From Deltaproteobacteria bacterium RIFCSPHIGHO2_02_FULL_44_16 (lineage in GTDB: Bacteria > UBA10199 > 2-02-FULL-44-16): a DNA stretch of 64,000 bases. How positions within the stretch are numbered: position 1 is the stretch's first letter; each line of letters opens with the position of its first letter. The DNA lies in NCBI GenBank assembly GCA_001798185.1, contig MGRM01000012.1, positions 88,120-152,119 of the forward strand, given 5' to 3'. The position numbers were made by a program, and so were the translations under genes. Of this stretch, positions 2,865 to 55,911 are shown one piece after another. The notes beneath the pieces were generated by a model. That model did not search any database, had not been told where the DNA came from, and saw nothing but the letters and a program-made list of their open reading frames with translations.

Positions 2865-5744
2865 ATGCGCCAGGAACTGGTCATCCGAGGGGCCCGGATG
2901 CACAATTTAAAAAATATCGATGTGACGATTCCGAAGAATAAACTCGTGGTCATTACAGGGCTTTCCGGGTCAGGGAAGTCGTCACTTGCCTTTGACACCA
3001 TCTATGCCGAAGGCCAGCGGCGCTATGTCGAATCGGTCTCAGCCTATGCTCGCCAATTCTTGGAGCAGATGGAAAAACCCGACGTCGACTCTATCGAAGG
3101 ACTCTCCCCTGCGATTTCGATCGAACAGCGCACAAGTTCCCGAAATCCTCGCTCAACGGTCGGTACCTCTACTGAAATTTATGACTATCTCCGTGTTCTC
3201 TTTGCTCGTGCGGGTCGGCCCCATTGTTACAAATGCGGACGTGCGATTCAGGCACAAACAGTTTCACAAATGATCGATCAGATTTTAAAACTCCCTTCAG
3301 GAACAAAGATCGGAATTTTAGCTCCGATCGTACGCGGCAGAAAGGGCGAATATACGAAGGATCTTGAACGACTGGCCCGACAGGGCTTTGTACGGGCGCG
3401 CGTTGATGGCAATGTGGTGTCACTCGATCAAAAAATCACGATCGATAAAAAGAAAAAACATAACATCGATCTTTATGTCGATCGGCTCGTGATTAAAGAT
3501 GATATCACCACGCGTCTTGCCGATTCTCTTGAAACTGCTCTCGGTCAAGGCGAAGGGCTTGTGAAGATTGAACTGATAAGCAATGCTGTCATTCCCGCGA
3601 AGGCGGGAATCTCAAAAAATTCACTGGATCCCCGCTTACGCGAGGATGACAATCAAGAAATTCTTTTCTCCGCAAAACATGCGTGTGCTTATTGTGGGCT
3701 CAGTTATCCCGAAATTAATCCTCAACTCTTTTCGTTCAACAGTCCTCGTGGAGCTTGCCCAGCTTGCGAAGGTCTTGGGACGCGACTCTATTTCGATCCG
3801 AATCTCGTCATTCCCAACCACAACCTTTCACTTCGCGAAGGAGCGATTGCGCCATGGCGAACAAAAGCTTCAACAGCCTATATTAATCTCTGCGAAGCGC
3901 TCGCAAAGCATTATGGATTCGATATTCGCACGGCATTTGCCAAACTTCCTCCTCACATTCAAAATGCGATTCTTATGGGTTCGGGGGAAGAAGAAATTAC
4001 CTTTGCCTTTGAAGGGACAGAACGAGAAAAAATAAAAACACGTTTTGAAGGAATCATTCCTCAACTCGAACGACGATGGAAAGAGACAAGCTCCATGGAC
4101 ATTCGTGAAGAACTCGAATGTTTTATGAATCGTCGTCCCTGTCCTACGTGCCAAGGAACTCGTCTTCGTCCTGAAGGAAGAAGTATTCTTATTGGTGGAA
4201 AAAACATTTCACACGTCACGGCATTTTCTATTCGCGAATGCATGCGTTTTATTTCGACGCTTGACCTCACCAAAAAAGAGGCAACGATTGCGGAAAAAGT
4301 TTTAAAAGAGATTCGTGAACGTCTCGGTTTTCTGATTGATGTGGGACTTGACTATCTCACACTCGATCGCACAAGTGGAACACTTTCAGGAGGAGAAGAT
4401 CAACGCATTCGACTGGCAACGCAGATTGGATCTGCACTTACGGGTGTTCTCTATGTCCTTGATGAACCTTCGATTGGTCTTCATCAACGCGATAATGATC
4501 GTCTTCTTCAAACCATGAAACGATTACGCGATTTGGGAAATACGCTTATCGTCGTTGAACATGATCGCGACACCATGGAGCACGCTGATCATATTATTGA
4601 TCTCGGGCCTGAAGCGGGTGTGAGGGGGGGCTATGTCGTTGCCACCGGAACTCCGAGTGATATCAAACGAAATTCTAAATCGCTTACCGGACAATATCTC
4701 TCTGGAAAAAAGAAAATCGATGTTCCACGAGATCGTCGCACTTCTTTGCTGGACGAACTTATTATAAAAGGAGCACGCGAGCATAATCTCAAAAACATCG
4801 ATATTTGTATTCCCTTGGGAGTTCTTACCTGCGTCACCGGAGTCTCAGGCTCGGGAAAATCGACGCTTGTGAATGAAACCCTTTTACAAGGTCTGAAGCA
4901 AAGACTCGAACAATCCAAGGAAACCGCAGGAAAGGTAGATGACATCATTGGATGGCAGAAGCTCGATAAAGTCATTGATATCGATCAGTCTCCGATTGGC
5001 CGAACTCCTCGCTCCAATCCCGCAACCTATACGAGTATTTTTACGCATATCCGCGATCTCTTTGCAGAACTCCCTCAATCGAAAGCGCGCGGATATAAAC
5101 CAGGTCGGTTTTCTTTTAACGTCAAAGGGGGCCGATGCGAAGCGTGCGAAGGCGATGGCATCATTCGAATCGAAATGCATTTTCTCCCCGACGTGCATGT
5201 CGAGTGTGAAGTCTGCGCAGGAAAACGCTTTAATCGCGAAACACTCGAGGTTCATTATAAAGGATCTTCTATTGCAGATGTTTTAAGTATGACCGTGAAT
5301 CAAGCTTTTACTTTTTTTGAAAATATTCCGTCGATTCATCATAAACTTCAAACGCTCATCGATGTTGGCATGGGCTACATTGAGCTTGGCCAATCAGCCA
5401 CAACTCTTTCAGGCGGCGAAGCTCAGCGCATTAAGCTTTCGCGCGAACTTGCGCGACGCGCAACCGGGAGAACTCTTTATATCTTAGATGAACCAACAAC
5501 TGGTCTTCACTTTGATGATGTGCGAAAACTCCTCACTGTCCTCAACCGGCTTATCGATCAAGGAAATACTATTGTCGTCATTGAGCATAACCTTGACGTG
5601 ATCATGTCTGCTGATTACTGTATCGACTTGGGACCTGAAGGGGGAGAAAAAGGTGGCTTTCTCATCGCCACAGGAACACCTGAAGAGCTTGCTGCCCACC
5701 CTACTTCATATACCGGATTTTATTTACGAGAACTTCTTTCATGA
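2865..5744 (+). CDS. uvrA: excinuclease ABC subunit A (UvrA); carries an in-frame repeat insertion
   Basis: two ABC ATPase modules ([25 protein letters not shown]; LSGGE signature twice) and zinc-finger cysteines CxxC; start taken at [17 protein letters not shown]. Confidence 0.95.
3588..3651. repeat. family-1 double-hairpin MITE-like element, inserted in-frame inside uvrA
   Basis: GTCATTCCCGCGAAGGCGGGAATC...GGATCCCCGCTTACGCGAGGATGACA; same element as the intergenic copies; adds the peptide [21 protein letters not shown]. Confidence 0.8.
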
Positions 5745-6697
5745 AACATTTTCTTGCGCTCATGACTTTTCTTTGTCTATGCAACCGACCTCTCATGGCT
5801 TCTACGGAACTTCGACAATTCGTTCAAGAAGCCGCGCTGACAGATGGATCTCTTCTTGAAATCACCATTGTCGATAATGCATCAGAAGAACAACGCGCCA
5901 ACACCACTATTGACCGCGCTCTTGCAGCGATTCGAAAACTCGATCAGGACTTCGGGGCTGCGCCCGCTGCTGCGACGGGAAACTTACATGATCAACTCAA
6001 TCATTTAAAGCCACATACCCCTTTGAAACTCCCCGAAGGTTATTTTCTTCTCTTTGAACAAGCCATTGAACTCGCAAAACTGACCAACGGATGGTTTGAC
6101 ATTACCGCTCCTTCAAAAAAAGGAATTTTTGTTCAGCGCGATTATCGTCGCGTTGAGCTACGTCCCGCTTCATCTGAAATGGTGCTCACCAAAAAACATC
6201 TCAAATTTGATCTTCGTTGGCTTCTCTCTGGAACAGCGTGCGATGCAGCGCTTGCGATCATTCAAGAAGCGGGTTTTCAGCGAGCGGAAGTGAAGGTGGG
6301 ACCTGTCTCCAAACATATCGGCCGAGATATTCACACGCCATGGGGACTTCAGATCGATATCCCAGGAGTTCAAGATGCGTATGCGCATCGAGCTTTTCAG
6401 TATCGCTTGTCGGATATTGCTGTCGCACAACTTATTCCTGAAAAAATAACTCCTCCTCTGATCGATCCAAAAACAAAAAATCCGGTGAAGGGACAAGTCA
6501 AAAGCATTACGGTGATGGCCAAAGATGCGCTCCATGCCATTGCGTTTGCAGTCGCAATAGCGCCCTTCGATGCTCTCACCGGTATTCGCTATCTTGAAAA
6601 ATTTCCAGGGCTCGAAGGAATTATTGTAGATCAAACAGGAGCACTTTTTATTTCTGAAGGATTGAAACAAAATGAGAAAAAGGAGAAACCAAAATGA
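5741..6697 (+). CDS. apbE: FAD:protein FMN transferase (ApbE family) lipoprotein
   Basis: signal peptide with a lipobox-like Cys; conserved IDPKT/IDPRT motif ([12 protein letters not shown]) followed by SITVMAKDA..; start overlaps the uvrA stop (ATGA). Confidence 0.65.
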
Positions 6698-6720
6698 AAC
6701 TTCTGAAAAATCACCGAGAA

Positions 6721-6806
6721 GTCATTGCGAGGAGCGTAAGCTCCGAAGCAATCTCCTGGAGATGCTCTGCTCGGGAGATCGCCACGCCCTTCGGGCTCGC
6801 GATGAC
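6721..6806. repeat. family-3 repeat, copy a (inverted orientation)
   Basis: reverse complement of GTCATCGCGAGCCCGAAGGGCGTGGCGATCTC...CTCGCAATGAC; its terminal ...GCGATGACA supplies the ATG of the downstream apbE paralog. Confidence 0.75.
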
Positions 6807-7731
6807 ACTCACTCGGACTTTTTTCAGAGGTATCTGCGCGTTAATCCTTCCTTTGCTATGGCTCTCTTTCTCATCATCTGCACACGCCCAAACAACAGAA
6901 GACATACGACAAATGAGTCGCCGCTTTGAAATCGGAAACTCTCAAGGGGCCATCATCATTTTAGGCTATGTCAAAGATCAGGCAACGATCGAGAAAATTC
7001 TCGAAATCGCAGCAGGTGAAGCAAAACGCCTTCATGAAATCATCGACTGGAAAAATCCCCAAAGCGAAGTCGCTCGTTTAAATCAAGTCAGTGGTTCCAA
7101 ATTTTATCCGGTGAGCAAAGAAGTGCTGAATATTTTTAAAGCTGCGGCCAGACTTTCCGAATGGACCGAAGGCGCTTTTGATATTGCCGCAGAGTCTCCG
7201 GTAGGCACGTATGAAAATATTAAACTCGATGAAAAAGGTTCGCGCGTACGTCTTCAAAAGAAAAAAATGACGGTTCGTTTCGACGCTATTTTTGATGGCT
7301 ATCTTGCCGATTACCTTATTCGCTATCTTTATGGAGCTGGCATCCATCATGCGATGGTCAAGGTAGGAAATACATTTCGTGGAGTAGGACGTTCGCTCAA
7401 CGGTCCCTGGCGCATTCAAGTTCAGGATGATGAAGGAACCTATGCGCATCGCGCCATGAAACTCACCGTTGGCAACGCAGGTGTTGCTACCGTCAGCGCA
7501 GCTCAGTTTCGCCAAACTCCTCCGATCGATCCCAGAACAAAGCAATCTCTTCCTGTCTGTTGCAAAGGGGCCACGGTTGCAATGAAGGAAGCCGCTCTCG
7601 CGCAAGGCATGGCATACACCATGTTTATCTTAGGTCCTCAAGGCGGTGTTGTTCTCATGGAGCAACTCGGTAATGCCAAAGGCATGGTCGCCGATAATGA
7701 AGGAAAATTTGTGAAAACGAGCGGGTTTTAA
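6802..7731 (+). CDS. FAD:protein FMN transferase (ApbE family) paralog
   Basis: signal peptide (LILPLLWLSFSSSAHA); IDPRTKQS motif; ATVAMKEAALA..; tandem paralog of the upstream gene. The long ORF start at 6694 reads through the repeat and was trimmed. Confidence 0.6.
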   Translation: MTLTRTFFRGICALILPLLWLSFSSSAHAQTTEDIRQMSRRFEIGNSQGAIIILGYVKDQATIEKILEIAAGEAKRLHEIIDWKNPQSEVARLNQVSGSKFYPVSKEVLNIFKAAARLSEWTEGAFDIAAESPVGTYENIKLDEKGSRVRLQKKKMTVRFDAIFDGYLADYLIRYLYGAGIHHAMVKVGNTFRGVGRSLNGPWRIQVQDDEGTYAHRAMKLTVGNAGVATVSAAQFRQTPPIDPRTKQSLPVCCKGATVAMKEAALAQGMAYTMFILGPQGGVVLMEQLGNAKGMVADNEGKFVKTSGF

Positions 7732-8068: not shown

Positions 8069-8084
8069 AGCATGTTTAAAGAGT

Positions 8085-8174
8085 GTCATCGCGAGCCCGG
8101 AGGGCGTGGCGATCTCTAGCAATCACTGTCTGCAGGAGATTGCTTCGTCGCTAACGCTCCTCGCAATGACATAC
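8085..8174. repeat. family-3 repeat, copy b, between the antitoxin and toxin genes
   Basis: GTCATCGCGAGCCCGGAGGGCGTGGCGATCTC...GATTGCTTCGTCGC...CTCGCAATGACATAC with terminal inverted repeats of about 11 bp. Confidence 0.75.
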
Positions 8175-8732: not shown

Positions 8733-8756
8733 GATCCCCGTTTTCACGGGGATGAC
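8733..8756. terminator. single family-1-like hairpin overlapping the hpt stop codon
   Basis: GATCCCCGTTTTCACGGGGATGAC hairpin resembling one arm of family 1. Confidence 0.4.
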
Positions 8757-9271
8757 GAAGAAGTAAAAGCGCCGATAAAAGGAAGCGACCGAAAAAGTCC
8801 CTCCGAGTCAAGTCCATATCCGATCACATAACGATCTGGAACTTCAAAGCCGATATAATCCACAAGCGTTCGACCTCCATTTCCGGTCTCTTTATACAGC
8901 AACGTTGCGACTTTGAGGGATTTTGGTTCTTTGTCTTTGAGATGCTTGATGAGATGACGAAGTGTGGAACCGGTATCGACAATATCTTCAATGAGAAGAA
9001 CATCTTTCCCCTGAATCGGTTGAGTGGTGTCAAATTCGAAGCGAATAATACCGGTGCTTCGATCATTTTTATAACTGGAGACGCGTAAAAAATCGCATGC
9101 AATCGGAAAAGAAAGAGCGCGAACAAGATCCGCCATAAAAATAAAAGCCCCCTTCAAGACTCCAATCACTACCAACTCTTTCCCTCGATATTCCTCTTCA
9201 ATTGCGCGAGAGAGTTCTTGAATGCGATGCGCAATTTCTTTTTCTGAAATGAGTATTTCAATTTCTTTCAT
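8744..9271 (-). CDS. hpt: hypoxanthine phosphoribosyltransferase
   Basis: PRTase motif LLIEDIVDTGSTL; ...YVIGYGLD...LPFIG C-terminus. Confidence 0.85.
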   Translation of the reverse strand: MKEIEILISEKEIAHRIQELSRAIEEEYRGKELVVIGVLKGAFIFMADLVRALSFPIACDFLRVSSYKNDRSTGIIRFEFDTTQPIQGKDVLLIEDIVDTGSTLRHLIKHLKDKEPKSLKVATLLYKETGNGGRTLVDYIGFEVPDRYVIGYGLDSEGLFRSLPFIGAFTSSSSP

Positions 9272-9978: not shown

Positions 9979-10002
9979 AATGTTTCCTTAACAGAATATC
10001 GA

Positions 10003-10150
10003 AATGTCTCTCGGAGGCGTTGTCTCGCTACGGCAAAAATCCTCAGACGCCAGATTTTTGCCTGCGCTTCAGCCTGCCGGGTATTGAGGCTTCGTTTCCG
10101 GCGTCTGAAGACGCCGCTCGACAAACGCTTCCTGCGGCCATTTCGATATT
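10003..10150. repeat. family-2 ~150-bp structured element, copy a, intercistronic between pyrE and pyrF
   Basis: about 90% identical to 55402-55560; strong hairpins GGCAAAAATC..GATTTTTGCC and GGCGTCTGAAGACGCC. Confidence 0.75.
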
Positions 10151-10828
10151 GAAGTTACATGGTTTAACACCTATTTCAGCAAATTCCTGTTGAAGCGATT
10201 TCACAATTTCTTGCGATGGATGAAATCGTTTCATTGCTTCAGGTAAAAAGTCGGTTGCTCGACTCATGGCAAAATACGTGATTCCTTTTTTTACGAGAGC
10301 CTCTTCAACACTTTTGCCATCATCTCTTTTCTGCATTCGATTCGTCAGTCCAATTGCCGCTACAACTTCAACCTCTACTTGAGCAAGAGATTCGAGTGTT
10401 TCAAGAAGTGAACCGCCAGTAGTCGTCACATCTTCAAGCACAATCACTTTTCCTTTTGGAACACCGATAAAATATTTATCCTGCAGCGCGCCATGTTCTT
10501 TAGGCTTCGCCCTTCCCATCGAAAGAACATATTTTCCTGGAACGCAGTCTGATTGAGCCATCGCCCATTTATAATTGGTAAGAATACCGAGCTTCGTTGC
10601 ACCTTCAGGAACTCCGTAAAATCCATCAAACTGCAGACGTTTGCTGTGAGCAAAAGCGATGACAAAATCGGTCAATTGATCCAGGAGAACAACATCATTG
10701 GAAACATTTCGCCAATTGACATACCAACACGACTGACGGCCCGACTTCAGCGTCATTGGTTTTTCGAAAAAACCGACGACATTATGGGTAAGAAGAAAAT
10801 CGTTGAAACGTTGTTGATCAAAATTCAT
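10043..10828 (-). CDS. pyrE: orotate phosphoribosyltransferase
   Basis: TLKSGRQSCWYVN and VLEDVTTTGGS PRTase motifs; start trimmed to MNFDQQ because the longer ORF reads through a family-1 repeat; the C-terminal ~35 aa are encoded by the family-2 repeat. Confidence 0.8.
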   Translation of the reverse strand: MNFDQQRFNDFLLTHNVVGFFEKPMTLKSGRQSCWYVNWRNVSNDVVLLDQLTDFVIAFAHSKRLQFDGFYGVPEGATKLGILTNYKWAMAQSDCVPGKYVLSMGRAKPKEHGALQDKYFIGVPKGKVIVLEDVTTTGGSLLETLESLAQVEVEVVAAIGLTNRMQKRDDGKSVEEALVKKGITYFAMSRATDFLPEAMKRFHPSQEIVKSLQQEFAEIGVKPCNFNIEMAAGSVCRAASSDAGNEASIPGRLKRRQKSGV

Positions 10829-10845
10829 ATTTTCTCTCACATTTT

Positions 10846-10915
10846 TGTCATCCTCGCGAAAGCGGGGATCCAGTGTTTTGGATATTTCTGGATTCCCGCT
10901 TTCGCGGGAATGACA
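10846..10915. repeat. family-1 double-hairpin element, copy b (intergenic)
   Basis: TGTCATCCTCGCGAAAGCGGGGATCC...GGATTCCCGCTTTCGCGGGAATGACA. Confidence 0.8.
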
Positions 10916-10919
10916 ACTT

Positions 10920-12782
10920 TCATAACACAAGAAGCAAAAGAGCAAGGAGAAAAATCACACCAAATCCCATACAGGACGCAATATAGATGAGTTCTGATCG
11001 ATGTCGCACGAGTTTCACATTTCCATGAAACATTTCTTTTAGGAATCTTAAAGTACGTGCGCGAAGGTTCGGTGATTCCAAAAGATCTGCAAGAAAATAA
11101 TATCCATCAAAATCAAGGAGAGGACAGAGATTCAAAAGAACAACAACATACGAAAGAGAAGCAAAGAGGAGCGCAAGAGAATCGAACATCGCATGATCGA
11201 TTACGAATGCCATGATCGAAGCAATCCCGGCTGGAATCATATGAGCATAAGGGCCTGCGAGTGTAACAGACATGCGGGGGAAACGTGATGCAGTCCACAT
11301 ATCAGAGGTATCGACAAAAAACATGGGGCCGACCCAATACCAGCCAAAACCGACTCCAAGCACGCGACGTTGAAAATGTTTTACCGTGAGCGCATGCCCT
11401 GCTTCGTGAAAAAGAATGCTCATGAAAAAGAGAGGAAGAAGCCACCATAACCAGATGGGAAAAGTCATCGCACGCTGAAATGCAGAAACAATCGAAACCT
11501 TCTGAGACGAAAAGGAGAAAAGACCGAAAAGGACAACAGAGCCAATAATGCATTGGCCTTTTTTGGAAAAGAACAAACAAGATATTTTTTGGAAGATGCC
11601 TGCAATCCATGCATCAACATCTGAAATATAGTATCTCCACTGAAGAATGCGTGAAAGAACACTGAAACATAAAACGAGACGGGAATGGAACGTATTCTTC
11701 AAGTCTCTTGTTTTCGCATTCCTCCCCTCAATCATGCCTGCAGCACCAAGGTCACTTATTTGCTGGGCAATCACATGAGGGGCAAAAGCTTTGTATTTTT
11801 CAAAATAGGATAAGGTGAGTTCTTTGAGTGTATGATCACCATCGAGAAGTTCCCACAAAAACAATCCTTCTGGTGTCAGCCGATAATAAAGATGCGCCGT
11901 TGGATCGTTCAGGATGAAAGAACGAATTCCATCTTTCGTTTCATATTCTTGAATGATAATTGTTTTGCGTCGGCATGGACGATCGCGAAGTTGCAAAAGA
12001 TCAATAAATTGGAGTCGGGCGCTCGGCTCATCGTGCAAGAACTGAAGCAATGCATCGCGCGAAATAACGAGTAGCTCTGAAGGTTCAACGGCTTTGACTG
12101 TCGCATTTCGTTTCTCTCCTGAAAGCAAAGCCGCTTCCCCGAATGTTGCTCCGGTTTCAAGAAAAGCGAGGGGCTTTTTATTTCCCACTTGATCTGAAGT
12201 TGTCACTTCAACTTTTCCCTGTCTCAACAGATAACATTCTGATCCCATTTCTCCCTCGCGAAGAAGAATTTCTCCTGACCGAACACTTTTCGACTGAAGA
12301 GATGTTGCAAATTTTTTGAGTCGATCAGCCGAAAGTGAAGAAAAAGGAGAGAGTTGTTTCAGAAATGAGGCTCGAAGCAATATTTCGGCCGTCTCTTCAA
12401 AAAGTTTTTTTGCATCTGGCGACTCATCAAGAGCGGCAAGAAAATCCTCACGAGAAAGTGAAAGTGCATGAAGTGTGGTAAGAGCAAATACCGAAGCGGT
12501 CCGTTTTTGATGTTTTGAAAGAAGCGCAATCTCGCCAAAATATTCTCCTGGACCAAGTGTTGCCATGACGACTGGTCCTGAGGAAGATGAAACAGCAACT
12601 TCGGCTCTCCCCTGAAGGATCAGGAAAAAGCGCTCCCCTTCTCCTCCTTCAGCGACAATCTTCACTCCGGAAGAAAAAACCTCTTCCCGAAAATGTTCTG
12701 AAAAAAAAGAAAGCGCCTTGTCGGAAAATAAAGCAAACAAGGACGCTTTCTTGAGCAACCTGACGTAATCTTTGGATGTCAT
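10920..12782 (-). CDS. membrane protein with tandem cyclic-nucleotide-binding domains fused to a site-2-protease-like M50 metalloprotease domain
   Basis: two CAP_ED-like segments (FFLILQGRAEV..GEYFGEIALL and YLLRQGKVEV..GATFGEAALLSGEKRNATVKA); C-terminal hydrophobic helices with HEAGHAL (HExxH) and LLDFDG motifs. Confidence 0.7.
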   Translation of the reverse strand: MTSKDYVRLLKKASLFALFSDKALSFFSEHFREEVFSSGVKIVAEGGEGERFFLILQGRAEVAVSSSSGPVVMATLGPGEYFGEIALLSKHQKRTASVFALTTLHALSLSREDFLAALDESPDAKKLFEETAEILLRASFLKQLSPFSSLSADRLKKFATSLQSKSVRSGEILLREGEMGSECYLLRQGKVEVTTSDQVGNKKPLAFLETGATFGEAALLSGEKRNATVKAVEPSELLVISRDALLQFLHDEPSARLQFIDLLQLRDRPCRRKTIIIQEYETKDGIRSFILNDPTAHLYYRLTPEGLFLWELLDGDHTLKELTLSYFEKYKAFAPHVIAQQISDLGAAGMIEGRNAKTRDLKNTFHSRLVLCFSVLSRILQWRYYISDVDAWIAGIFQKISCLFFSKKGQCIIGSVVLFGLFSFSSQKVSIVSAFQRAMTFPIWLWWLLPLFFMSILFHEAGHALTVKHFQRRVLGVGFGWYWVGPMFFVDTSDMWTASRFPRMSVTLAGPYAHMIPAGIASIMAFVIDHAMFDSLALLFASLSYVVVLLNLCPLLDFDGYYFLADLLESPNLRARTLRFLKEMFHGNVKLVRHRSELIYIASCMGFGVIFLLALLLLVL

Positions 12783-12792: not shown

Positions 12793-12993
12793 TTACATCC
12801 CCTTATTCATTTTTGCTGTAAGCTGTTGATCATTTAATTTCCAGTCGATCTTGCGAAATGCATTTGTTTCTTCTGCCGTTAGCTTCACACCAGTTGATTG
12901 CAATGTTCCTATCGGGTTCTTTCGCATCTTCGTTCTAAAACCAATGTCATTCGCCCACTTCTCAACTAACATTTCAATCTCTTTGCGTGCCAT
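12793..12993 (-). CDS. small paralogous peptide 1 (66 aa), NHLP/Nif11-leader-like
   Basis: MARKEIEMLVEKWANDIGFRTKMRKNPIGTLQSTGVKLTAEE...; AGGAGG RBS 6 nt upstream of the ATG; trimmed from the longer ORF. Confidence 0.6.
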   Translation of the reverse strand: MARKEIEMLVEKWANDIGFRTKMRKNPIGTLQSTGVKLTAEETNAFRKIDWKLNDQQLTAKMNKGM

Positions 12994-13006
12994 TCTTCCT
13001 CCTTGT

Positions 13007-13210
13007 TTAAGCAAGCCATTTACTGACACGTGATTGCAATTCTTGATCACTCAACTTCCAATCAATGTTTTTAAAAGCATTCATTTCTTCTGGTGTCAGC
13101 TTCACTCCTGTTGATGTAAGCGTTGCCATCGGATCTTTTCGCATCTTGGTTCTGAAACCAGCATCACTTGTCCATTTTTCGACTAACATTTCAATTTCCT
13201 TGCGCACCAT
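13007..13210 (-). CDS. small paralogous peptide 2 (67 aa)
   Basis: MVRKEIEMLVEKWTSDAGFRTKMRKDPMATLTSTGVKLTPEE...; own RBS. Confidence 0.6.
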   Translation of the reverse strand: MVRKEIEMLVEKWTSDAGFRTKMRKDPMATLTSTGVKLTPEEMNAFKNIDWKLSDQELQSRVSKWLA

Positions 13211-13240
13211 ATAACCTCCCTATGATTTTCGTTCTCATGA

Positions 13241-13438
13241 CTAATACTTATTTATCCTTGCCTTAAGTTCTTCGTCATTTAAACTCCAGTCAATTTTGCG
13301 AAATGCACCCATTTCTTCGTTTGTTAGTTTCACTCCTGTCGATGTGATCGTTCCCATTGGATCTTTGCGCATCTTTGTTCGGAATCCCATATCATTCGTC
13401 CATTTCTCAACCAATCCTTCAATCTCCTTGCGCACCAT
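13241..13438 (-). CDS. small paralogous peptide 3 (65 aa)
   Basis: MVRKEIEGLVEKWTNDMGFRTKMRKDPMGTITSTGVKLTNEE...; AGGAGG RBS. Confidence 0.6.
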   Translation of the reverse strand: MVRKEIEGLVEKWTNDMGFRTKMRKDPMGTITSTGVKLTNEEMGAFRKIDWSLNDEELKARINKY

Positions 13439-13453
13439 ATATCCTCCTTTTGA

Positions 13454-13654
13454 TCAAGGTATCTTAGAAACTCTGGTTTTTAGTTCCTCATCACTTAGTT
13501 TCCAATCAATCTTGCGGAACACTGACATTTCTTCGGGGGTAAGTTTCACTCCCGTTGTTTGCAACGTGTCCTCAGGATTCTGCCGCATGTTCTTGCGAAA
13601 CATCTGGTCGTTCATCCACTTGTCGAACAACATGTCGATTTCTTTTTTTCCCAT
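13454..13654 (-). CDS. small paralogous peptide 4 (66 aa)
   Basis: MGKKEIDMLFDKWMNDQMFRKNMRQNPEDTLQTTGVKLTPEE...; GGAGGAGG RBS; trimmed from the longer ORF. Confidence 0.6.
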   Translation of the reverse strand: MGKKEIDMLFDKWMNDQMFRKNMRQNPEDTLQTTGVKLTPEEMSVFRKIDWKLSDEELKTRVSKIP

Positions 13655-14621
13655 CGTCCTCCTCCTTTGAAAAAAATGAAGCGTTGCGAATAAGCTTCTG
13701 CAGCACTTTTGCTGCAGGCTCAAAAGGTCGCGCTTCCATAAGCGCAGAACGTGCTTTCTCGCAATAAATTTCAGTCACAATCGCTGTCATCCACTTTGCT
13801 CCTGTTGCACTCAGCTGTGTTTGAATTGCACGTCGACTTTTGAGAGAAGATTTTGCATCTTGAAGCGACGTCAAAAAAATTTGCTTTTCCACTCCCTTCA
13901 AACGCTCGAGACAAAAAGCGATTGGAAAGGTTCTCGTGCCATTGGAGATATCCTTACTCTGTTGAGATTCAAAAAGATCATAACAATCTGACGAAAGTTG
14001 ACCCGCAACACCAAGAGCCCTGGCGTATGCCATATAATGTTCAACACATTCTGGATGAGCATTTGCCGTATGTGCTGCAAGGGCTGCAAACATCGCTAAT
14101 TCCTCGCCACTCTTTTTCATGACACTTAACTCAACTGCGTTCGTCGATACTTTACTCTTGTTCACAGATGCAATGTCTTGTTGCTGTCCATCGCTCATGA
14201 TGAGGAGCCCACGCGCAATCGTTTCATGCATGAGATTTTTCTGCTCATGCGAAAGAGAGAGTTTTGCAAGAAGAAGGTGAGGAAACGTGCTGACAAGTGT
14301 TGTTCCTAATATCAATCCTTCTTGAGGAGTTAATTTTCCCTCGTGTTGCAAATCTCCATCCGCAAGATCATCGAGGATATCGATTCCCAAATAGAGTATT
14401 GACGTGAGAACTGGAAGCAAGATGGGAACTTTTTTTGCGGTAATCCCCTCATAGACAGCCGATGGAAGCGAAATAAAGAAAAGTTCACTCTCTTCCGAAA
14501 CGTAGGTTTGAAGACGTTCAACAGCATATGCAAAAAGCCGTCGCTGTTCAGAAGATTGCGACCAGGAAGAGAGTTCATCTTGAAGACGTGACAGAACTTC
14601 AGATGTTTCCGAAGACTTCAA
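13572..14621 (-). CDS. trans-isoprenyl diphosphate synthase-like (polyprenyl synthetase fold) protein
   Basis: first Asp-rich motif DILDDLADGD at the expected position; second motif degenerate (GQLSSDCYDLFE); the 3' end overlaps peptide 4 by about 80 nt in another frame. Confidence 0.55.
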   Translation of the reverse strand: MKSSETSEVLSRLQDELSSWSQSSEQRRLFAYAVERLQTYVSEESELFFISLPSAVYEGITAKKVPILLPVLTSILYLGIDILDDLADGDLQHEGKLTPQEGLILGTTLVSTFPHLLLAKLSLSHEQKNLMHETIARGLLIMSDGQQQDIASVNKSKVSTNAVELSVMKKSGEELAMFAALAAHTANAHPECVEHYMAYARALGVAGQLSSDCYDLFESQQSKDISNGTRTFPIAFCLERLKGVEKQIFLTSLQDAKSSLKSRRAIQTQLSATGAKWMTAIVTEIYCEKARSALMEARPFEPAAKVLQKLIRNASFFSKEEDDGKKRNRHVVRQVDERPDVSQEHAAES

Positions 14622-21721: not shown

Positions 21722-21796
21722 GGATACCTCCTGAAGAAACACGCACATTTGCGGATTCAACATAAAAGGTCAACGCCACTTATTCAAACACATTAT

Positions 21797-21815
21797 TTAG
21801 GTGCCGTGCACTTAA
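21797..21815. repeat. REP palindrome (RAYT-associated type)
   Basis: TTAGGTGCCGTGCACTTAA, same motif as the copies flanking the RAYT gene. Confidence 0.6.
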
Positions 21816-21953
21816 CTGGGAAAATTCTGATCTCTATTGCTTCAATCACCATTTTGGGGATAAAGGTGAGGAGGATCAAAAGCCGTTATTGTTCGCAACT
21901 TTTTTTCGAGAGCAACGATAATAAAAACGTCAGTGATACTGTAAAGGAATCTT

Positions 21954-22557: not shown

Positions 22558-24075
22558 ATGCTTGCTCAAGTTTACGCCGCTGCACTCGTGGGAATCGAAA
22601 CGCAACTCGTCGAAGTGGAAGTCGACGTTCAAATGCAAGGCCTTCCTGGTTGGAGCATGGTCGGTCTCCTTGAAACCGCGGTCAAAGAAGCGCGCGATCG
22701 CGTGTTGCCAGCGCTTCGAAATTCTGGATATAAACTTCTCAATCGTCGCACCATTGTAAATCTCGCTCCAGGAAATGTGAAAAAAAGTGGAGCTCATTTT
22801 GATCTCCCCATCGCCATCGGCATGCTCACGGCCTGGAATATTTGCAAACCTCATCCAGACAAACGCTATCTTCTGGCTGGCGAATTATCGCTGACGGGAG
22901 AACTTCTTCCCATTAATGGCGCGCTTCTCATGGCTATTGCTGCGCGGGCTCATCAACTCACGGGCATTATTCTTCCGGTTCAAAATGAAGAAGAGGCAAA
23001 ACTTGTCACTTCAACAGAAGTTGTTGGATTTTCAACATTGACCGAAGTCGTTCAATTTCTCAATGGAGAGTTTGTTCCCACAAAACAGATGCCTCCAAAA
23101 AAACAAAAACGAACTGCGCCGCCACTTAATTTTGGAGAAGTGCGCGGTCAGCCGATCGCGAAACGCGCGCTCGAAATTGCTGCTGCGGGCGGACACAACA
23201 TTTTGATGGTCGGAACACCTGGCTCTGGAAAGACAATGCTTGCAGAGAGATTACCCACAATTCTTCCTCCACTGACTTCTGAAGAAAAATTGGAAACGAT
23301 GAAGGTCTTAAGTCTGCATGGACTTCTTCACGATACGATTCTTTCTGACGAACGCCCTTTTCGTGCTCCGCATCATTCTGCTTCGTATGCAGGGCTTATC
23401 GGCGGCGGTGGAGGGATACCGAAACTTGGAGAAATTTCGCTCGCACACAATGGCGTTCTGTTTATGGATGAGCTTGCTGAGTTCAATCGTAATGTCTTGG
23501 AAGTTCTGCGTCAGCCACTCGAGTCTGGTCTCGTCCGTCTTGTTCGCACTGGAGCGAGCGTCACCTATCCTGCTCGCTTTATGTTGGTGGCTGCGATGAA
23601 TCCGTGTCCTTGCGGATATTATGGTCATCCAAAACGTGCGTGTATTTGTAATATGCATCGTATTCAGCATTATCGACGAAAAGTTTCAGGACCACTGATT
23701 GATCGAATCGACATTCACATTGAAGTCGAACCAGTTCCTCATAAAGATCTGATGGGAGATAAACCGACAGAAACATCTGAGATGATTAAACAGCGAGTCC
23801 TCGCAGCACGAAAAATTCAAGAAGCACGCTACGATTCACGCATTGGTTGTAATGCTCAACTCCATGCTCGTGATTTAAAAAAATTCTGTCCTTTTAAAGG
23901 AAATGCAGAATCGCTTCTCGAAAAAGCGACCGAGAAAATGCACCTCTCAGCTCGCTCAACCCATCGCGTATTGAAAATTGCCCGAACCATCGCCGACCTC
24001 GAATCCTCCGACGCCCTCGGCCCACCTCATATCGCCGAAGCACTGCAGTATAGGCCTACGGATGATGTGCATTAA
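22558..24075 (+). CDS. comM: Mg-chelatase-like AAA ATPase YifB/ComM
   Basis: N-terminal MLAQVYAAALVGIETQLVEVEVD; Walker A GTPGSGKT; C-terminal ChlI-like region. Confidence 0.85.
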   Translation: MLAQVYAAALVGIETQLVEVEVDVQMQGLPGWSMVGLLETAVKEARDRVLPALRNSGYKLLNRRTIVNLAPGNVKKSGAHFDLPIAIGMLTAWNICKPHPDKRYLLAGELSLTGELLPINGALLMAIAARAHQLTGIILPVQNEEEAKLVTSTEVVGFSTLTEVVQFLNGEFVPTKQMPPKKQKRTAPPLNFGEVRGQPIAKRALEIAAAGGHNILMVGTPGSGKTMLAERLPTILPPLTSEEKLETMKVLSLHGLLHDTILSDERPFRAPHHSASYAGLIGGGGGIPKLGEISLAHNGVLFMDELAEFNRNVLEVLRQPLESGLVRLVRTGASVTYPARFMLVAAMNPCPCGYYGHPKRACICNMHRIQHYRRKVSGPLIDRIDIHIEVEPVPHKDLMGDKPTETSEMIKQRVLAARKIQEARYDSRIGCNAQLHARDLKKFCPFKGNAESLLEKATEKMHLSARSTHRVLKIARTIADLESSDALGPPHIAEALQYRPTDDVH

Positions 24076-24090
24076 GTGCCGTGCACTTAA
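24072..24090. repeat. REP palindrome overlapping the comM stop
   Basis: TTAAGTGCCGTGCACTTAA. Confidence 0.65.
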
Positions 24091-24111
24091 TTGAGAAAAA
24101 AGAGGCTTATA

Positions 24112-24741
24112 ATGCCCCGCTACCCCATAATTCATATTCCCGACGGAATTTATTCAGTAACCAGCAAATGCAACAATAATGAATTTCTCTTTGACGCTGA
24201 AGAGAAGTTTCAATTGTATTTACATCATCTCCTAGAATGTAAACGCAAATTGAATTTCATTATCTATGATCTCTGTTGTATGTCGAACCATGTGCATGAA
24301 CTTTATCGTGTCACCCGTGGAATTACGATTGCGGATATTCTTCACACCGTTCGTGGACATTTTTCTCAAAAATTTAATACTCGTTTTGGGCGAAGCGGAC
24401 ATTTTTGGAAAAGCAAACCTTACTATCGTATTGTTGAAGACGAGCAATATGCATTTCATCTCATGAATTATTTTCACTTAAATCCTGTAAAGGCCGGCCT
24501 TGTTGATAAACCTGAAAATTGGCCTTATTCAGGATATCGCTTTCATATGCTCGGGGACCGAAAAGGACTTATGGGGAGACTACTTAATCAAATTCCTGGA
24601 ACTTCGAAATCCACAACATCAGTCGATTCTGAAAACTTGTATTTGAACAAGTTACTTCAACGACGTCGATTACGATTTATTGGAACAGAAGAGTTTATAA
24701 ACAGCATGCAGACAAGATATAAACGAGATAGCGAGAAATAA
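24112..24741 (+). mobile_element. REP-associated tyrosine transposase (RAYT, IS200/IS605 TnpA-like HUH Y1 transposase)
   Basis: MPRYPIIHIPDGIYSVTS N-terminus; HuH motif SNHVHEL; YFHLNPVKAGLVDKPENWPYSGY catalytic-Tyr motif; flanked by REP palindromes. Confidence 0.8.
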
Positions 24742-24815
24742 GTGCCGTGCACTTAAATGAAAAAATTCTCGCTTTAAATGCATTTTTCTTCCAAATAAGT
24801 GCACGGCACTTAAGT
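24739..24815. repeat. inverted pair of REP palindromes (BIME-like) immediately 3' of the RAYT gene
   Basis: TAAGTGCCGTGCACTTAA at 24739-24756 and the inverted copy TAAGTGCACGGCACTTAAG at 24797-24815, separated by about 40 bp. Confidence 0.65.
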
Positions 24816-24819
24816 AAAG

Positions 24820-27468
24820 TTGACACCGTTCTTCATATCAGCACAAATCTCTCCCATGCCAATAACCTTGATCACAGGCCCGGTAGGCTCAGGGAGAACC
24901 ACTCTTCTTTTTGAAAAACTTTCGGATGCGCTTGCCAAAGGGAAAGCGGTTTACATTGCCCCCAATGAAACACTGGCAACTGAGCTTCGTACGGCGTTTC
25001 TTTCCTTTCTTGAAGAGAGTGGAAAGCGCGCAGCGCTCGTGGGCGACATTTTTCTCTCTCTTCGCAGCTTTGTTTATCGTCTGACACAAAAAACACCGAC
25101 GATGACTTCATTTCAGCAAACTCTTCTCTGTTTTGAGCTTCTTCAATCACAACAGCTCCGCTATTTCGATCCTCATCACATTTCATTTCAAATCGCTCGA
25201 GATGCAGCGAGCAGCATTCATACACTAAAGAAAAACGGAATTTCTCCGGAGCAACTTGAAGTCCTTCTCGAAACTCGTGGTTCATTACAGGAGTACGACC
25301 TCCTCACTCTTTTTAAACGTTATGAAACAAAACGAGAGGACCTTCATCTTCTCGACGAAGGTGATCTTTTTCAAAGGGCTTGCAGCCTTTCATATACAGG
25401 AGAGATATTTGTCGATGAATTTACTCATCTTCAACCAGGCGAACGGACTCTTTTCCAAAACCTTGCAGCGCAGACACACATGCATCTCACGCTTCCCGAA
25501 GCTGATGATGAGCATCAACCTTTTGCCTCTTTTTTGAAAAAATCAATCAGTACCCTTCAACCACTCACTCACACACATCAACAATTACCAAAAAAAAATC
25601 ATGAAATGGCGCAAACCACGCTTCTTTCGTTACGTTCTTCTTTAGATGAAACACGATTTTGTCTTCAACAACTCCTTGGGACTGAGGATGAATCTTTTTC
25701 ACCTGCCATGATCGTCACTCGGCAGCGATCTGCTTTTCCAAAAATCTTATTTCAAGAATGGAAAAACGTGCAAAACCCAGAAAGAGCGCCAGCTCCGGTT
25801 TCTCGAATCTTTTCCGAAATCCTTCAGATTTCGTTACCAGAAGAGGCTTCACTGCTTACGTTTGCGGAACAACTTCGTAAATCATTGCAACCCACGCACA
25901 GCGATCCTTCTCTGCATCTTCGTTTCTTACATCTTCTTCAGACTCTCTCTGCACAAGCACATCTCCTTCAATTGAAAACATTTTCGCGAACCGAATTTTA
26001 TGAAATCATTCAATTTCATTTGGAACAAGAGAACATCCATCAACCACAACTCCCCTTCGAGACACGGAGTTTTGAAAGAAGTATTTCACAACCACACCCG
26101 AGAATCATCATTCCTGAAATGAACGAAGGGAATATTCCTTTTCTTGCTCCGGAACATTTTTTCTTCTCAGACCAGCTCGACTTCTCAGCCTCTCCAAACC
26201 CTCTGTTAGATGAAATTTTTCCTGCAGCAGATCAACTATTAGCACTGGATGCTTTTCGATTTTATACGTTTCTCACGAAAGCTACCGAAGAAGTTGTGCT
26301 GACCTTTTCTCTTCTCGATCACAAAGGGCAGGAAACAATCCCGTCCTCTTTTGTCAAAAACTTTGGTCCCCCACTGCCCATAGAATCTCAGGTTTTTTCA
26401 CCTGAAGCTCTGCAGACCCTCGGAACAGAGGCGCTTCTTCAGCGCATCACTATTGAGCAAGAGCGAAGAGCGATGCGAAAAGATCATCTCTCCTACCACG
26501 GTCTTATTCAAGACCCGGAAGCGCGAAAGCTCCTCAAAGAGCGCTTTACTCAGGAATGTTTCAGTCCCTCTCGTCTTGAAACCTACGCTGAGTGTCCGAT
26601 GCGTTTCTTTTTTGAAAAAGTTTTAGGACTCAAACCTGAAGAAGAGATCACTCCTGAAGTTCAACCCAAAGACCGAGGAACTATTATTCATGCTCTTCTA
26701 GAATGCTTTTATCGCGACTATCGCAATCTTTTTTCAGCGGCGCTTACTGATGCTTCAAAAGAGAAAGAGATCTCAGCACTTCTCGATCAACTTCTGGATG
26801 AAGTTTTTCTTCAGCACGATCATCTCTTGCAACAAAGCGCTCCGGCGCTTCGCCCCTTTGAACGAAAAGCTATTCGAAAAGTGATTGAAAAAACACTTTT
26901 CCTCGAACTTGAAACAGCCCGCGCTCTCTCAACTCCTCTCTTGCCTTCACACTGTGAGTGGATTTTTGGAACAGAACACGTAAAACCACTTTCGCTTTCT
27001 CTCGAAAATGATGATGACATTTTGATTCAAGGACGTGTCGATCGTATCGATGTGTCGCACGATGGTTCTTCTTTTCTCATTGTCGATTACAAAACCGGAA
27101 AATCGATTGAAAGCATTCGAAAAAAAATTGAAGATGGGCTTCATCTTCAAATTCCACTGTATATTGCCGCAGTCCAAAAACTTCTTCTTCCACACGCTTC
27201 CGCTCTTGGCGGACTTCTGTTTGCGGTCATGAAAGGTGAAAAGACCTCAGGCATGTTGAAAAAAGAACATAACGAAAAAAGTTTTTCCCTTTCATCTCGT
27301 TCGCGCGCGTTGATTTCGGAAGAAGAGTGGGAAGATCTTTTAGAGACAAGTTTCAAATATACCCGTGACTATGTCACCGCGATACGAAATGGAAATTTTT
27401 CACATCTGACATCTGAGCCGTGCAAGTACTGTACATTCGCACAAGCGTGTCGCAGAGGAACGTCATGA
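24820..27468 (+). CDS. AddB/RexB-like helicase-nuclease subunit (PD-(D/E)xK nuclease)
   Basis: N-terminal Walker A GPVGSGRTT; C-terminal nuclease motif RVDRIDV...IVDYKTGK and cysteine cluster C..C..C..C; the true start may be at the internal Met at 24856. Confidence 0.65.
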   Translation: MTPFFISAQISPMPITLITGPVGSGRTTLLFEKLSDALAKGKAVYIAPNETLATELRTAFLSFLEESGKRAALVGDIFLSLRSFVYRLTQKTPTMTSFQQTLLCFELLQSQQLRYFDPHHISFQIARDAASSIHTLKKNGISPEQLEVLLETRGSLQEYDLLTLFKRYETKREDLHLLDEGDLFQRACSLSYTGEIFVDEFTHLQPGERTLFQNLAAQTHMHLTLPEADDEHQPFASFLKKSISTLQPLTHTHQQLPKKNHEMAQTTLLSLRSSLDETRFCLQQLLGTEDESFSPAMIVTRQRSAFPKILFQEWKNVQNPERAPAPVSRIFSEILQISLPEEASLLTFAEQLRKSLQPTHSDPSLHLRFLHLLQTLSAQAHLLQLKTFSRTEFYEIIQFHLEQENIHQPQLPFETRSFERSISQPHPRIIIPEMNEGNIPFLAPEHFFFSDQLDFSASPNPLLDEIFPAADQLLALDAFRFYTFLTKATEEVVLTFSLLDHKGQETIPSSFVKNFGPPLPIESQVFSPEALQTLGTEALLQRITIEQERRAMRKDHLSYHGLIQDPEARKLLKERFTQECFSPSRLETYAECPMRFFFEKVLGLKPEEEITPEVQPKDRGTIIHALLECFYRDYRNLFSAALTDASKEKEISALLDQLLDEVFLQHDHLLQQSAPALRPFERKAIRKVIEKTLFLELETARALSTPLLPSHCEWIFGTEHVKPLSLSLENDDDILIQGRVDRIDVSHDGSSFLIVDYKTGKSIESIRKKIEDGLHLQIPLYIAAVQKLLLPHASALGGLLFAVMKGEKTSGMLKKEHNEKSFSLSSRSRALISEEEWEDLLETSFKYTRDYVTAIRNGNFSHLTSEPCKYCTFAQACRRGTS

Positions 27469-30293: not shown

Positions 30294-30317
30294 GACCATC
30301 TGAAAAACTTCAAAAAT

Positions 30318-30387
30318 GTCATTCCCGCGCAGGCGGGAATCCAGTATTGTCAGTAACTTCTGGATCCCTGCCTTCGCAGGGATGACA
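30318..30387. repeat. family-1 double-hairpin element, copy c (between convergent genes)
   Basis: GTCATTCCCGCGCAGGCGGGAATCC...GGATCCCTGCCTTCGCAGGGATGACAA. Confidence 0.8.
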
Positions 30388-38687: not shown

Positions 38688-40331
38688 CTAATGATGAAAA
38701 TGCCGTTTACCGGTGAAGACCATGGCGATATTATGTTCATTGGCAGCTTCAATGACTTCATCATCGCGAAGAGAGCCACCGGGTTGGATGATGGCTGTGA
38801 TCCCTGCTTTTGCTGCAATATCAACACCATCACGAAAAGGAAAAAAGGCATCCGACCCCAGGGACTGCGTCCCTCTTCTGGGTATTTTTTGGGAGTTCAA
38901 TTTTTTAATTGCTTGTTCAACTGCATCCACTCGACTTGTCTGGCCAGCGCCGATACCAAAGGTTTGATCTTCTGATGCAATCACAATGGCATTAGACTTC
39001 ACATGTTTACACAGTCTCCATGCAAAGTTAAGAGCTACACCCTCTTCCTGGGATGGTGAACGTTTGGTCACGATTTGATATTGATGAATGTTTTCTTCTC
39101 CCACATCTCGATCTTGAACCAGCAAACCACCTGCAACTTTGCGAAGGGTCAATCCTGGAGAAGCTCCTCGTTTTCCTAAACCCTCCACTTCCAGCAAACG
39201 AAGATTTTTTTTCTTCGACAAAAGTACTTTTGCTTCATCTGAAAACGATGGCGCCAAAATCACTTCAAAAAAAGTTTCCCCGATCGCCTCTGCAGTCGCT
39301 TTATCGAGTTCTCGACTCAGCGCCACAATACCACCAAAAGCCGAAAGCGCATCGGCATCTCGCGCTTTGCAAAATGCATCCGCGAGAGACATTGATGAAA
39401 CTGAGGCCCCGCAGGGATTTGCGTGCTTGATGATGACAGCAGCAAAAGGAGCATCATTGAAATCTTTGATCACCGAAAGAGCCGCATCAGCATCCATAAT
39501 ATTGTTGTAGGAGAGCTCTTTCCCGTGAAGTTGTCGCGCATTGAAAATGCTTGGCTCAGACAAACTGTCATTCCCGCGAAGGCGGGAATCTCCTGAGATC
39601 CCTGCTTTCGCAGGGATGACAACCATATTACTCACATCACGATAGAGCGCAGCTCTCTGATGCGGATTTTCTCCATATCTCAAGGCTTGCGCCTTTTCAT
39701 AGATAAGTCCTAGCGTTTTGGGGAAATCTGCAACCTTTTCTTCATTCTCAAATCCAGTAAGATAGTTTGCAATCGCTGCATCATACCGAGCCGTCGTTGC
39801 AAAAACTTTTTGTGCTAAACGGAACTTCGTTCCTTTCGAAAGTTCTCCCTGATTTTTTTTCATTTCTTCAAGCACCGACACATAATCAGCATGATCCACA
39901 ATAACCGCAACATCGTGATAATTCTTCGCAGCAGCGCGAAGCATGGTCGGACCACCGATATCGATATGTTCGATGGCGTGAGACAAGGAGCAACCATCAG
40001 CAACGGTTTTTTCAAAAGCATAGAGATTGACCACAACAAGATCGATCGTCTCGATCTTTTGTTCTTTCAGTTCCTGCAGATGAATTTTGTTTTGACGAAT
40101 CGCAAGCAGACCACCATGAATTTTCGGATGAAGTGTTTTCAGTCTTCCATCGAGAATTTCAGGAGAACCGGTGTAATCGGAAACATCTCTCACTACAATT
40201 CCAGCATCTCGCAAAACTTTTGCCGTTCCTCCGGTCGAAAGAATTTCAACGCCAAGCGCGGCAAGCTCTTGAGCAAAAGCAACAATGCCGGTTTTGTCGG
40301 TAACACTGATAAGAGCACGTTTGATTTTCAT
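38688..40331 (-). CDS. purH: bifunctional AICAR transformylase / IMP cyclohydrolase; carries an in-frame repeat insertion
   Basis: MGS-like N-terminal domain; YGENPHQ; ELSYNNI; AICARFT C-terminal domain. Confidence 0.9.
39557..39612. repeat. family-1 double-hairpin element inserted in-frame in the purH interdomain linker
   Basis: GTCATTCCCGCGAAGGCGGGAATCTCCTGAGATCCCTGCTTTCGCAGGGATGACAA; adds [19 protein letters not shown] between YGENPHQ..LYRDVSN and ..[12 protein letters not shown]. Confidence 0.8.
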
Positions 40332-45898: not shown

Positions 45899-45899
45899 C

Positions 45900-55800: not shown

Positions 55801-55826
55801 AATAACTCCTATCCCAAACTGATTTT

Positions 55827-55911
55827 GTCATCCCTGCGAAGGCAGGGATCCAGAAGCTTGTCCCCACGAAGGTGGGGATTTCACTGGATTCCCGCCTACG
55901 CGAGAATGACA
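55827..55911. repeat. family-1 element, copy e (three-hairpin variant) between purB and purS
   Basis: GTCATCCCTGCGAAGGCAGGGATCC...GTCCCCACGAAGGTGGGGAT...GGATTCCCGCCTACGCGAGAATGACA. Confidence 0.8.

Follow-up and report, generated by a model that had tools for sequence, protein, structure and literature searches.

The uvrA gene in a 64-kb stretch of contig MGRM01000012.1 from Deltaproteobacteria bacterium RIFCSPHIGHO2_02_FULL_44_16 (hereafter the window) contains a dispersed palindromic repeat, which we designate family 1, and the data presented below support its in-frame insertion into a functional-looking gene, with the addition of a loop to the encoded protein. By its sequence, the family-1 element is a head-to-head dimer of CGTC-1 tagged repetitive extragenic palindromic (REP) hairpins and not a new kind of element. 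We regard it as quite likely that a non-autonomous selfish dimer of this type landed in uvrA and was kept there as a neutral passenger, its spread probably depending on the Ssn family of GIY-YIG nucleases. The element family, the presence of in-frame REPs in uvrA and the association with GIY-YIG genes are already known; the host lineage, the particular genes hit and the pattern that marks one UvrA loop as an insertion hot spot are new here.

The palindrome lies in-frame within an intact uvrA gene

The gene and the element within it are located as follows.

2865..5744, plus strand: uvrA coding sequence (intact open reading frame, conserved motifs, identity to OGQ22439.1, Protein Data Bank match split at the insert, structure model)
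3587..3651, no strand assigned: family-1 element in uvrA (sequence, arm pattern, match to the nuclease target NTS described below, hairpin)

The uvrA gene is a single unbroken open reading frame (ORF) on the plus strand (2823/2865-5744), opened by a GTG at 2823 and encoding 959 aa from the ATG at 2865, and its product keeps both Walker A motifs, both LSGGE motifs and all of the zinc CxxC motifs. The protein has the same sequence as OGQ22439.1 from Deltaproteobacteria bacterium RIFCSPHIGHO2_02_FULL_44_16, a metagenome-assembled genome (MAG) from Rifle groundwater, and UvrA chains of the Protein Data Bank match it at E = 0. Nucleotides 3588-3650 encode the 21-residue peptide V242-D262, the extra segment extending approximately over residues 240-263. 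The palindrome itself is 65 nt long and, together with one flanking base, it amounts to 66 nt or 22 codons, so that the reading frame is preserved.

Because the source is a MAG, in which repeats can be mis-joined, a mis-assembled repeat or a uvrA pseudogene had to be considered. However, the insert is found with the same junctions in each of the five proteins that cluster at 90%, across several contigs and assemblies, and also in a separate, independent 75-kb contig that is 99.8% identical. Since the same insert recurs in the five cluster members and in this contig, it is not an assembly artefact. The unbroken ORF with all of its motifs, and its 72-75% identity to orthologues over the full length, argue likewise against a dead gene, and we give an artefact or a pseudogene practically no credence.

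Anatomy and copies of the family-1 element

The element at 3587-3651 (TGTCATTCCCGCGAAGGCGGGAATCTC / AAAAAATTCA / CTGGATCCCCGCTTACGCGAGGATGACA) is composed of two inverted arms, each of them a small hairpin, with a left arm at 3587-3614, a spacer at 3615-3623 and a right arm at 3624-3651. The arms follow the formula TGTC + ATTCCCGC + GAAG + GCGGGAAT + CCA(G), with ATCCCTGC and ATCCTCGC as stem variants and GAAG, GAAA, GCAG and GTAA as loops. When the window was searched with a degenerate 25-nt arm pattern, 11 arm matches were obtained in the 64 kb, which form five two-armed head-to-head copies and one solo arm, and 100 dinucleotide-preserving shuffles gave 0; the arms of the uvrA copy match the pattern with 0 and 1 mismatch. 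The remaining copies are listed next.

8733..8757, minus strand: solo CGTC-tagged arm CGTCATCCCCGTGAAAACGGGGATC (arm pattern)
10846..10915, no strand assigned: family-1 copy between two minus-strand genes, 18 nt 5' of the ATG (10828) at which a phosphoribosyltransferase gene likely starts
30317..30387, no strand assigned: family-1 copy 24 nt 3' of the stop codon of a 957-aa ORF (27420-30293)
39566..39621, no strand assigned: family-1 copy in-frame within purH (ORF 38688-40331, minus strand), encoding a 20-residue peptide
55826..55911, no strand assigned: family-1 copy with an additional hairpin inside it, 4 nt 3' of the stop codon of a 431-aa ORF (55915-57210, minus strand)

Three copies sit just beyond gene ends, and 2 of the 5 lie inside housekeeping genes. 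The purH copy also appears as an interruption at the protein level, the phmmer alignment with Mycobacterium tuberculosis PurH (3zzm) being split at residues 233|256. Folding of the five copies gives a long hairpin in every case (-33 to -50 kcal/mol, z -6.4 to -10.2), that of uvrA having a predicted energy of -32.9 kcal/mol and a z of -7.2. The TGTC tag opens all 10 arms of the five copies, and the solo arm opens with CGTC. A CCA(G) tail ends both arms in each of the copies at 10846, 30317 and 55826 as well as the right arm in uvrA, and the left arm in uvrA and both purH arms end with CTC. Five of the six frames through the arms lack stop codons, only the GFPLSRE* frame being closed by a TGA, and therefore an insertion of suitable length is usually translatable.

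These results agree with an original prediction, made from the sequence alone, that had placed the element in uvrA at this position, with the frame preserved and about 21 residues added, and the gene is not the frame-disrupted pseudogene for which that prediction had allowed. The additional copies that it listed at 10846, 30318 and 55827 are real, and the one in purH had escaped it. It had also stated that the element encodes a similar peptide in either orientation, and the purH copy, which encodes its 20-residue counterpart in a gene of the opposite strand, bears this out. As for the copy at 10846, which it described as intergenic, this lies inside a publicly called ORF, although the start of that ORF is probably mis-set. 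In the public assembly, the phosphoribosyltransferase ORF begins upstream of this copy and runs through it (peptide CHSRESGNP...DPRFREDD; region 10828-10945). The true start is likely to be the ATG at 10828 (MNFDQQ...), in which case the repeat would be an element of the 5' leader. For genome annotation, such repeats account for spurious 'VIPAKAGI' and 'DSRFRGND' peptides and for mis-set start codons.

The extra segment in UvrA orthologues and in a structure model

The next-closest UvrA proteins are 72-75% identical to that of the window over their full length and share the gene order PGM ... uvrA-ApbE-ApbE. At the insert point, the orthologues P0006, P0008, P0012, P0018 and P0019 have just 4-6 residues, as compared with about 30 in the window UvrA, and the empty site can be read in the DNA of the syntenic orthologue L124. 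The phmmer alignment with the Bacillus stearothermophilus UvrA (2r6f/3uwx) is broken into residues 4-239 and 264-958 (split 239|264), and residues 240-263 face one single residue of that protein. An AlphaFold2 model of the window UvrA, computed with 26 sequences and having a mean predicted local distance difference test (pLDDT) score of 74.6, drops below 50 exactly at 240-263, the sole low-confidence stretch within an otherwise confident UvrA domain, and this stretch is flanked by strands 232-237 and 265-269. The model thus suggests that the inserted segment is a disordered tip between two β-strands. Judging from the B. stearothermophilus UvrA structures, we take the insert position to be in the UvrB-binding domain, shortly before the second CxxC of zinc module 1; the insert lies about 13 residues past the conserved 11-residue helix of this domain. 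The alignment with orthologues and the structure model, both of which the original prediction had proposed as checks, are in agreement with its claim of an added segment in a loop.

Identity of the element

CGTC-tagged REPs have been described as carrying the tag CGTC, often replaced by TGTC (TGTC and CCTC being the allowed variants), an 8/9-bp stem opening with A-T, a 4/5-nt loop and a CCA tail, and as occurring mainly in head-to-head dimers, with the CGTC-1 subfamily characterized by an 8-bp stem and a 4-nt loop (Di Nocera, De Gregorio and Rocco 2013, BMC Genomics 14:522, PMC3733652; hereafter Di Nocera 2013). The window element shows the tag, the stem with its loop, the tail and the dispersed head-to-head dimers of CGTC-1, which is the basis for the assignment given above. 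Furthermore, the intragenic CGTC-1 peptides compiled in Additional file 3 of that survey, which include VIPAKAGI, DSRFRGND and WIPAFAGMT, are the three-frame translations of the window arms. The window differs from the cases known before in that its host, an uncultured groundwater 'Deltaproteobacteria' MAG, belongs to a lineage outside the survey, and in that one arm of the uvrA copy ends with CTC and the second stem of this copy is degraded.

According to the same survey, CGTC-1 is the dRS3 element of Neisseria and the RPE-6 of Rickettsia conorii, an equivalence that we take from it and not from an alignment of our own. On this basis, the likeness to Rickettsia palindromic elements (RPEs) to which the original prediction pointed is closer than an analogy. 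As in the RPEs (Ogata et al. 2000, 2002), and RPE-6 in particular, palindromic repeats are found in-frame in housekeeping genes, to which they add surface peptides, and both uvrA and purH carry such a palindrome in a conserved gene that is not disrupted by it. The differences are that the host is not a Rickettsia and that the element measures 57-86 nt, as against 119-138 nt for the copies of a Rickettsia endosymbiont. This endosymbiont, that of Polydrusus tereticollis, contains the exact 28-nt arms (loci L015 and L076). The finding extends the Rickettsia-style decoration of housekeeping proteins by palindromic repeats to a free-living, uncultured groundwater lineage. The endosymbiont dimers, located at 591-724, 1641-1770 and 5735-5853 of L015 and at 1527-1645, 5345-5482 and 6457-6575 of L076, have AT-rich cores and lie nested within additional flanking repeats that are conserved, the translations including LLHGSKK and CCMD. 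Searches of the NCBIfam and Pfam libraries, whose content of RPE models was unchecked, gave no match to the window peptides (E to 10) or to their endosymbiont versions (E to 1), and a full-text literature search with the peptides and the arm sequence retrieved nothing.

The further claim that such in-frame insertions are rare outside Rickettsia was overstated. Intragenic CGTC and GTAG REPs have been tabulated for many species, and those in repair genes include R. conorii uvrB and uvrC (CGTC), a Thioalkalivibrio uvrA and both uvrA genes of O. terrae (Di Nocera 2013, PMC3733652). Because that survey reports such uvrA cases, in-frame REP dimers in uvrA are an already documented event; nevertheless, its CGTC cases concern uvrB and uvrC and its uvrA cases are GTAG repeats, whereas the uvrA copy of the window is CGTC-1.

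The original prediction had also called the element a MITE (miniature inverted-repeat transposable element), and its terminal inverted repeats, small size, many copies and variable core would indeed suit a classical MITE, i.e. a deletion derivative of an insertion sequence with a DDE transposase that is mobilised in trans. However, target-site duplications are missing from all five copies, and the presumed terminal repeats are hairpins in their own right, each with an unpaired tag that is conserved. Arms of this kind were found to enclose just one type of gene, for a 96-aa GIY-YIG nuclease and not for a transposase, and the survey of CGTC repeats found no transposase linked to them (Di Nocera 2013, PMC3733652). 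A classical MITE is thus very improbable and was rejected: lacking both target-site duplications and ends derived from a transposase, the element is a dimer of head-to-head REPs, as are the REPINs (units of two REP hairpins), and the MITE label was a loose one. Like the REPINs and their REP-associated tyrosine transposases (RAYTs) (Bertels and Rainey 2011; Nunvar et al. 2010), the family-1 system has a unit of two inverted REP hairpins and an associated nuclease that works on single-stranded hairpin DNA and whose own gene is flanked by hairpins. It differs from them in that the nuclease is of the GIY-YIG type instead of an HUH tyrosine transposase, in that the tag is CGTC instead of GTAG, and in that the mobility of CGTC-1 is an inferred one.

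Distribution of the arms and their association with Ssn nuclease genes

In species-representative genomes, the exact 28-nt arm was present in more than 120 loci among the matches listed, with hosts in the Zixibacteria, Planctomycetota, Nitrospirales, Dehalococcoidia, Patescibacteria, Omnitrophota, Leptospiraceae and the Alpha-, Beta- and Gammaproteobacteria, in addition to the Rickettsia endosymbiont. Full dimers numbered 80 among the matches listed, and they combine the same arms with unrelated cores of 10 to 300 nt. Two 362-nt copies, one from a betaproteobacterium and the other from a Desulfobacterales MAG, contain a 96-aa GIY-YIG ORF (PF01541, E 9e-17 and 2e-15). A metagenome search with this 96-aa protein alone gave 80 loci, which were inspected with a strict hairpin detector that required a GTC[AG] tag and a perfect stem of at least 7 bp within 120 nt of the gene. 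Such a tagged hairpin accompanied 65 of the 76 evaluable Ssn-like genes (on both sides in 43 of the 76), as compared with 3 of 954 control windows. Among these loci the stems co-vary and the tag and the tail are constant. Eight of the loci (L128, L133, L136, L137, L163, L165, L179 and L201) have inside-out flanks, CTGG-hairpin-ATGAC [gene] GTCAT-hairpin-CCAG, in which the tags point toward the gene.

Although the association of hairpins with GIY-YIG genes was found independently here, it had already been published. The small GIY-YIG enzyme SsnA binds a target called NTS, CGTCATTCCCGCGMAVGCGGGAATCYRG, and cuts single-stranded DNA upstream of it; SRM hairpins surround 71% of the ssnA homologues, and the NTS-ssnA-NTS arrangement is reminiscent of an insertion sequence (Chenal et al. 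2025, Nat Commun 16:2388, PMC11893778). The arms at 10888-10915 and 30317-30344 match the NTS with 1 mismatch, and the left arm in uvrA and two others match it with 3, with 0 matches expected. The arm sequence of the window appears to be the published NTS save for its first base (T for C), and related arms flank small GIY-YIG genes in the loci retrieved from other organisms. Three literatures that name one and the same hairpin, as RPE-6, as the CGTC-1 REP or dRS3 and as NTS/SRM-Ssn, are joined by the element. The two systems differ in location, since 2 of the 5 window copies are in housekeeping genes, whereas just 2% of the NTS of Neisseria meningitidis are intragenic and the elements cluster around surface-protein genes (Chenal et al. 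2025, PMC11893778).

These observations bear on the question of whether the uvrA copy acts as a nucleic acid, either as an Ssn cleavage site that limits recombination or transformation across uvrA or as a hairpin in the mRNA, which would slow translation or guide RNase processing. The strong predicted hairpin (-33 kcal/mol) would suit such a role, in Neisseria the NTS elements reduce how much transforming DNA is integrated (Chenal et al. 2025, PMC11893778), REPs serve as RNA elements in 3' untranslated regions according to the literature, and three window copies are just outside gene ends. Nevertheless, the uvrA arms are 3 mismatches away from the NTS motif, the proportion of intragenic NTS in N. 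meningitidis is the low one given above, and the search for a partner nuclease in the window was negative; when the 64 kb were scanned with Rfam, only two tRNAs were detected and no family for the element. A role of the copy as nucleic acid thus appears quite unlikely.

Since the arm appears to correspond to the Ssn recognition site and the Ssn genes are themselves flanked by arms, the spread of the family-1 dimers can be regarded as Ssn-dependent. By analogy with the copying of REPINs by RAYTs, the copies would probably be made or mobilised through an Ssn-dependent process on single-stranded DNA. The survival of the copy that landed in uvrA would be explained by the 66 nt that it occupies with one flanking base, by arms free of stop codons in five of the six frames, and by a landing site at the tip of a β-hairpin of the UvrB-binding domain, in a loop that appears tolerant of large insertions. 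In the protein, the 22-24 extra residues most likely form a disordered passenger that is, as we infer, functionally neutral.

Several points weigh against this selfish-passenger interpretation. The neutrality of the added UvrA loop is an assumption, and nobody has demonstrated that Ssn copies or moves these repeats. The insertion is deduced from orthologues at 72-75% identity and not from an intraspecies empty-site polymorphism, the sole near relative (99.8%) having the insert as well, and no direct repeat, and hence no target-site duplication, is seen in the sequences flanking the five copies. The arms of the uvrA copy are degraded, with the CTC tail in place of CCA on the left and stem mismatches in the right arm, and this copy may no longer be a substrate. 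Finally, tblastn and profile searches detected no Ssn/GIY-YIG gene in the 64-kb window or in the related loci L121-L124, and the partner nuclease in the host genome is therefore unproven.

The UvrA loop as a recurrent acceptor of palindromic inserts

Insertions of at least 8 aa were found at the same loop in 55 of 115 full-length UvrA homologues; elsewhere in these 115 proteins there is one at position 211, one at position 467 (the REP-like GVGAVREPPL) and an 8-aa clade-specific segment at position 866. The DNA of the loop inserts was palindromic in all six of the orthologues examined, and the palindromes belong to different families.

L122, 2622-2765: family-2-type dimer (family 2 is described in the last section), with an arm matching the hemC copy of the window
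L123, 10709-10807: two hairpins of the VRPE...HHER type
L205, 2094-2153: single GTAG REP
L206, 3709-3810: GTAG dimer
L207, 3709-3786: AACCTCCGAGGTT hairpin
L208, 3709-3807: long palindrome of the CTCGGGA type

The inserts recognised as repeats are that of L122, through its family-2 arm, and the GTAG-tagged ones, the others being recognised as palindromes; none of these orthologue inserts has a second copy within its own 6-17 kb locus. Represented at the loop are CGTC-1 and family 2, each as a dimer, GTAG REPs both single and dimeric, and no fewer than three further hairpin families. The GTAG-17 dimer reported at residues 224-239 of the O. terrae UvrA Oter_3168 (Di Nocera 2013, PMC3733652) has a position consistent with the same loop. 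No description of the hot-spot pattern was found in the literature that could be searched, although the frequent targeting of repair genes had been pointed out by Di Nocera 2013.

This recurrence raises a question about co-option of the insert, in which the extra loop would alter the hand-over from UvrA to UvrB and tune repair as a mutator or anti-mutator, thus explaining the frequent insertions in repair genes. The insert is located only some 13 residues past the conserved helix of the UvrB-binding domain, unrelated palindromic inserts occupy the same loop in at least seven lineages, and REPs in UvrABCD, RecBCD and polymerase genes have been argued to be unlikely to be fortuitous (Di Nocera 2013, PMC3733652). 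However, the loop inserts have no common sequence, length or charge pattern, which fits tolerance better than a selected function. The insert is, moreover, predicted to be disordered, and the non-repair genes purH and hemC of the window also carry inserts, so that we consider co-option unlikely. As to the recurrence itself, we are rather doubtful that it goes beyond passive tolerance, whether by targeting at the DNA level or by recurrent selection for an altered UvrA-UvrB hand-over. The same reservation extends to a parallel idea, in which the in-frame copies would be footprints of an active single-strand copying driven by Ssn. In any case, a loop that many repeat families have hit independently provides a test bed for distinguishing tolerated from selected REP insertions in repair genes.

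Other in-frame insertions and repeats in the window

A second repeat family, family 2, has TGTC-tagged heterodimeric arms, TGTCATTGCGAGGA...CGAAGCAATCTC and GAGATCGCCACGCCCTTCGGGCTCGCGATGACA, and four copies in the window.

6721-6810: family-2 copy
8079-8170: family-2 copy
52322-52488: family-2 copy with a long inner insertion
63592-63702: family-2 copy, in-frame within hemC

The hemC gene, whose ORF is on the minus strand and extends past the end of the window, contains this family-2 dimer (EGHCEDPEKKRRGRSNLMQTVLSGDRHALRARDD), which adds about 46 residues with respect to 5h6o, and a second in-frame insert at 63897-63924, a GTAG-tagged REP with the sequence GTAGGGGCACACGGCCGTGCGCCCCTAC (TDVGAHGRVPLP). 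The 64 kb thus contain four in-frame insertions, of which uvrA and purH have one each and hemC has two, all three being housekeeping genes. A GTAG-tagged REP dimer is also present at 45861-45903 (GTAGGGGCGAACGGCGTTCGCCC / GGGCGTGCCACTCGCCCCTAC) and constitutes, together with the GTAG copy of hemC, a third palindromic family in the window.

The second ApbE ORF (6694-7731) has a called N-terminus (6694-6830) that runs through the first family-2 copy, and an ATG in the terminal arm of this copy (..GLAMTLTR..) directly precedes a typical signal peptide, TRTFFRGICALILPLLWLSFSSSAHA. The repeat may thus supply or displace the true start codon of this gene.

Some further repeats were observed. The palindrome TAAGTGCCGTGCACTTAA recurs at 21790-21840, 24072-24115 and 24739-24820, with three direct and several inverted occurrences, and may represent either a site resembling an operator or a further small repeat. 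In the region 12802-13665, a unit of about 217 nt occurs four times in tandem (63-73% identity), matching a series of small ORFs (65-67 aa), one of which has a weak PF14407 (Frankia_peptide) match in the public gene calls; it looks like a tandem family of small peptide genes. A perfect direct repeat of 42 nt is found at 49095-49136 and 50920-50961, 1.8 kb apart, and a repeat of 152 nt with 87% identity is found at 9999-10150 and 55408-55559, 45 kb apart.

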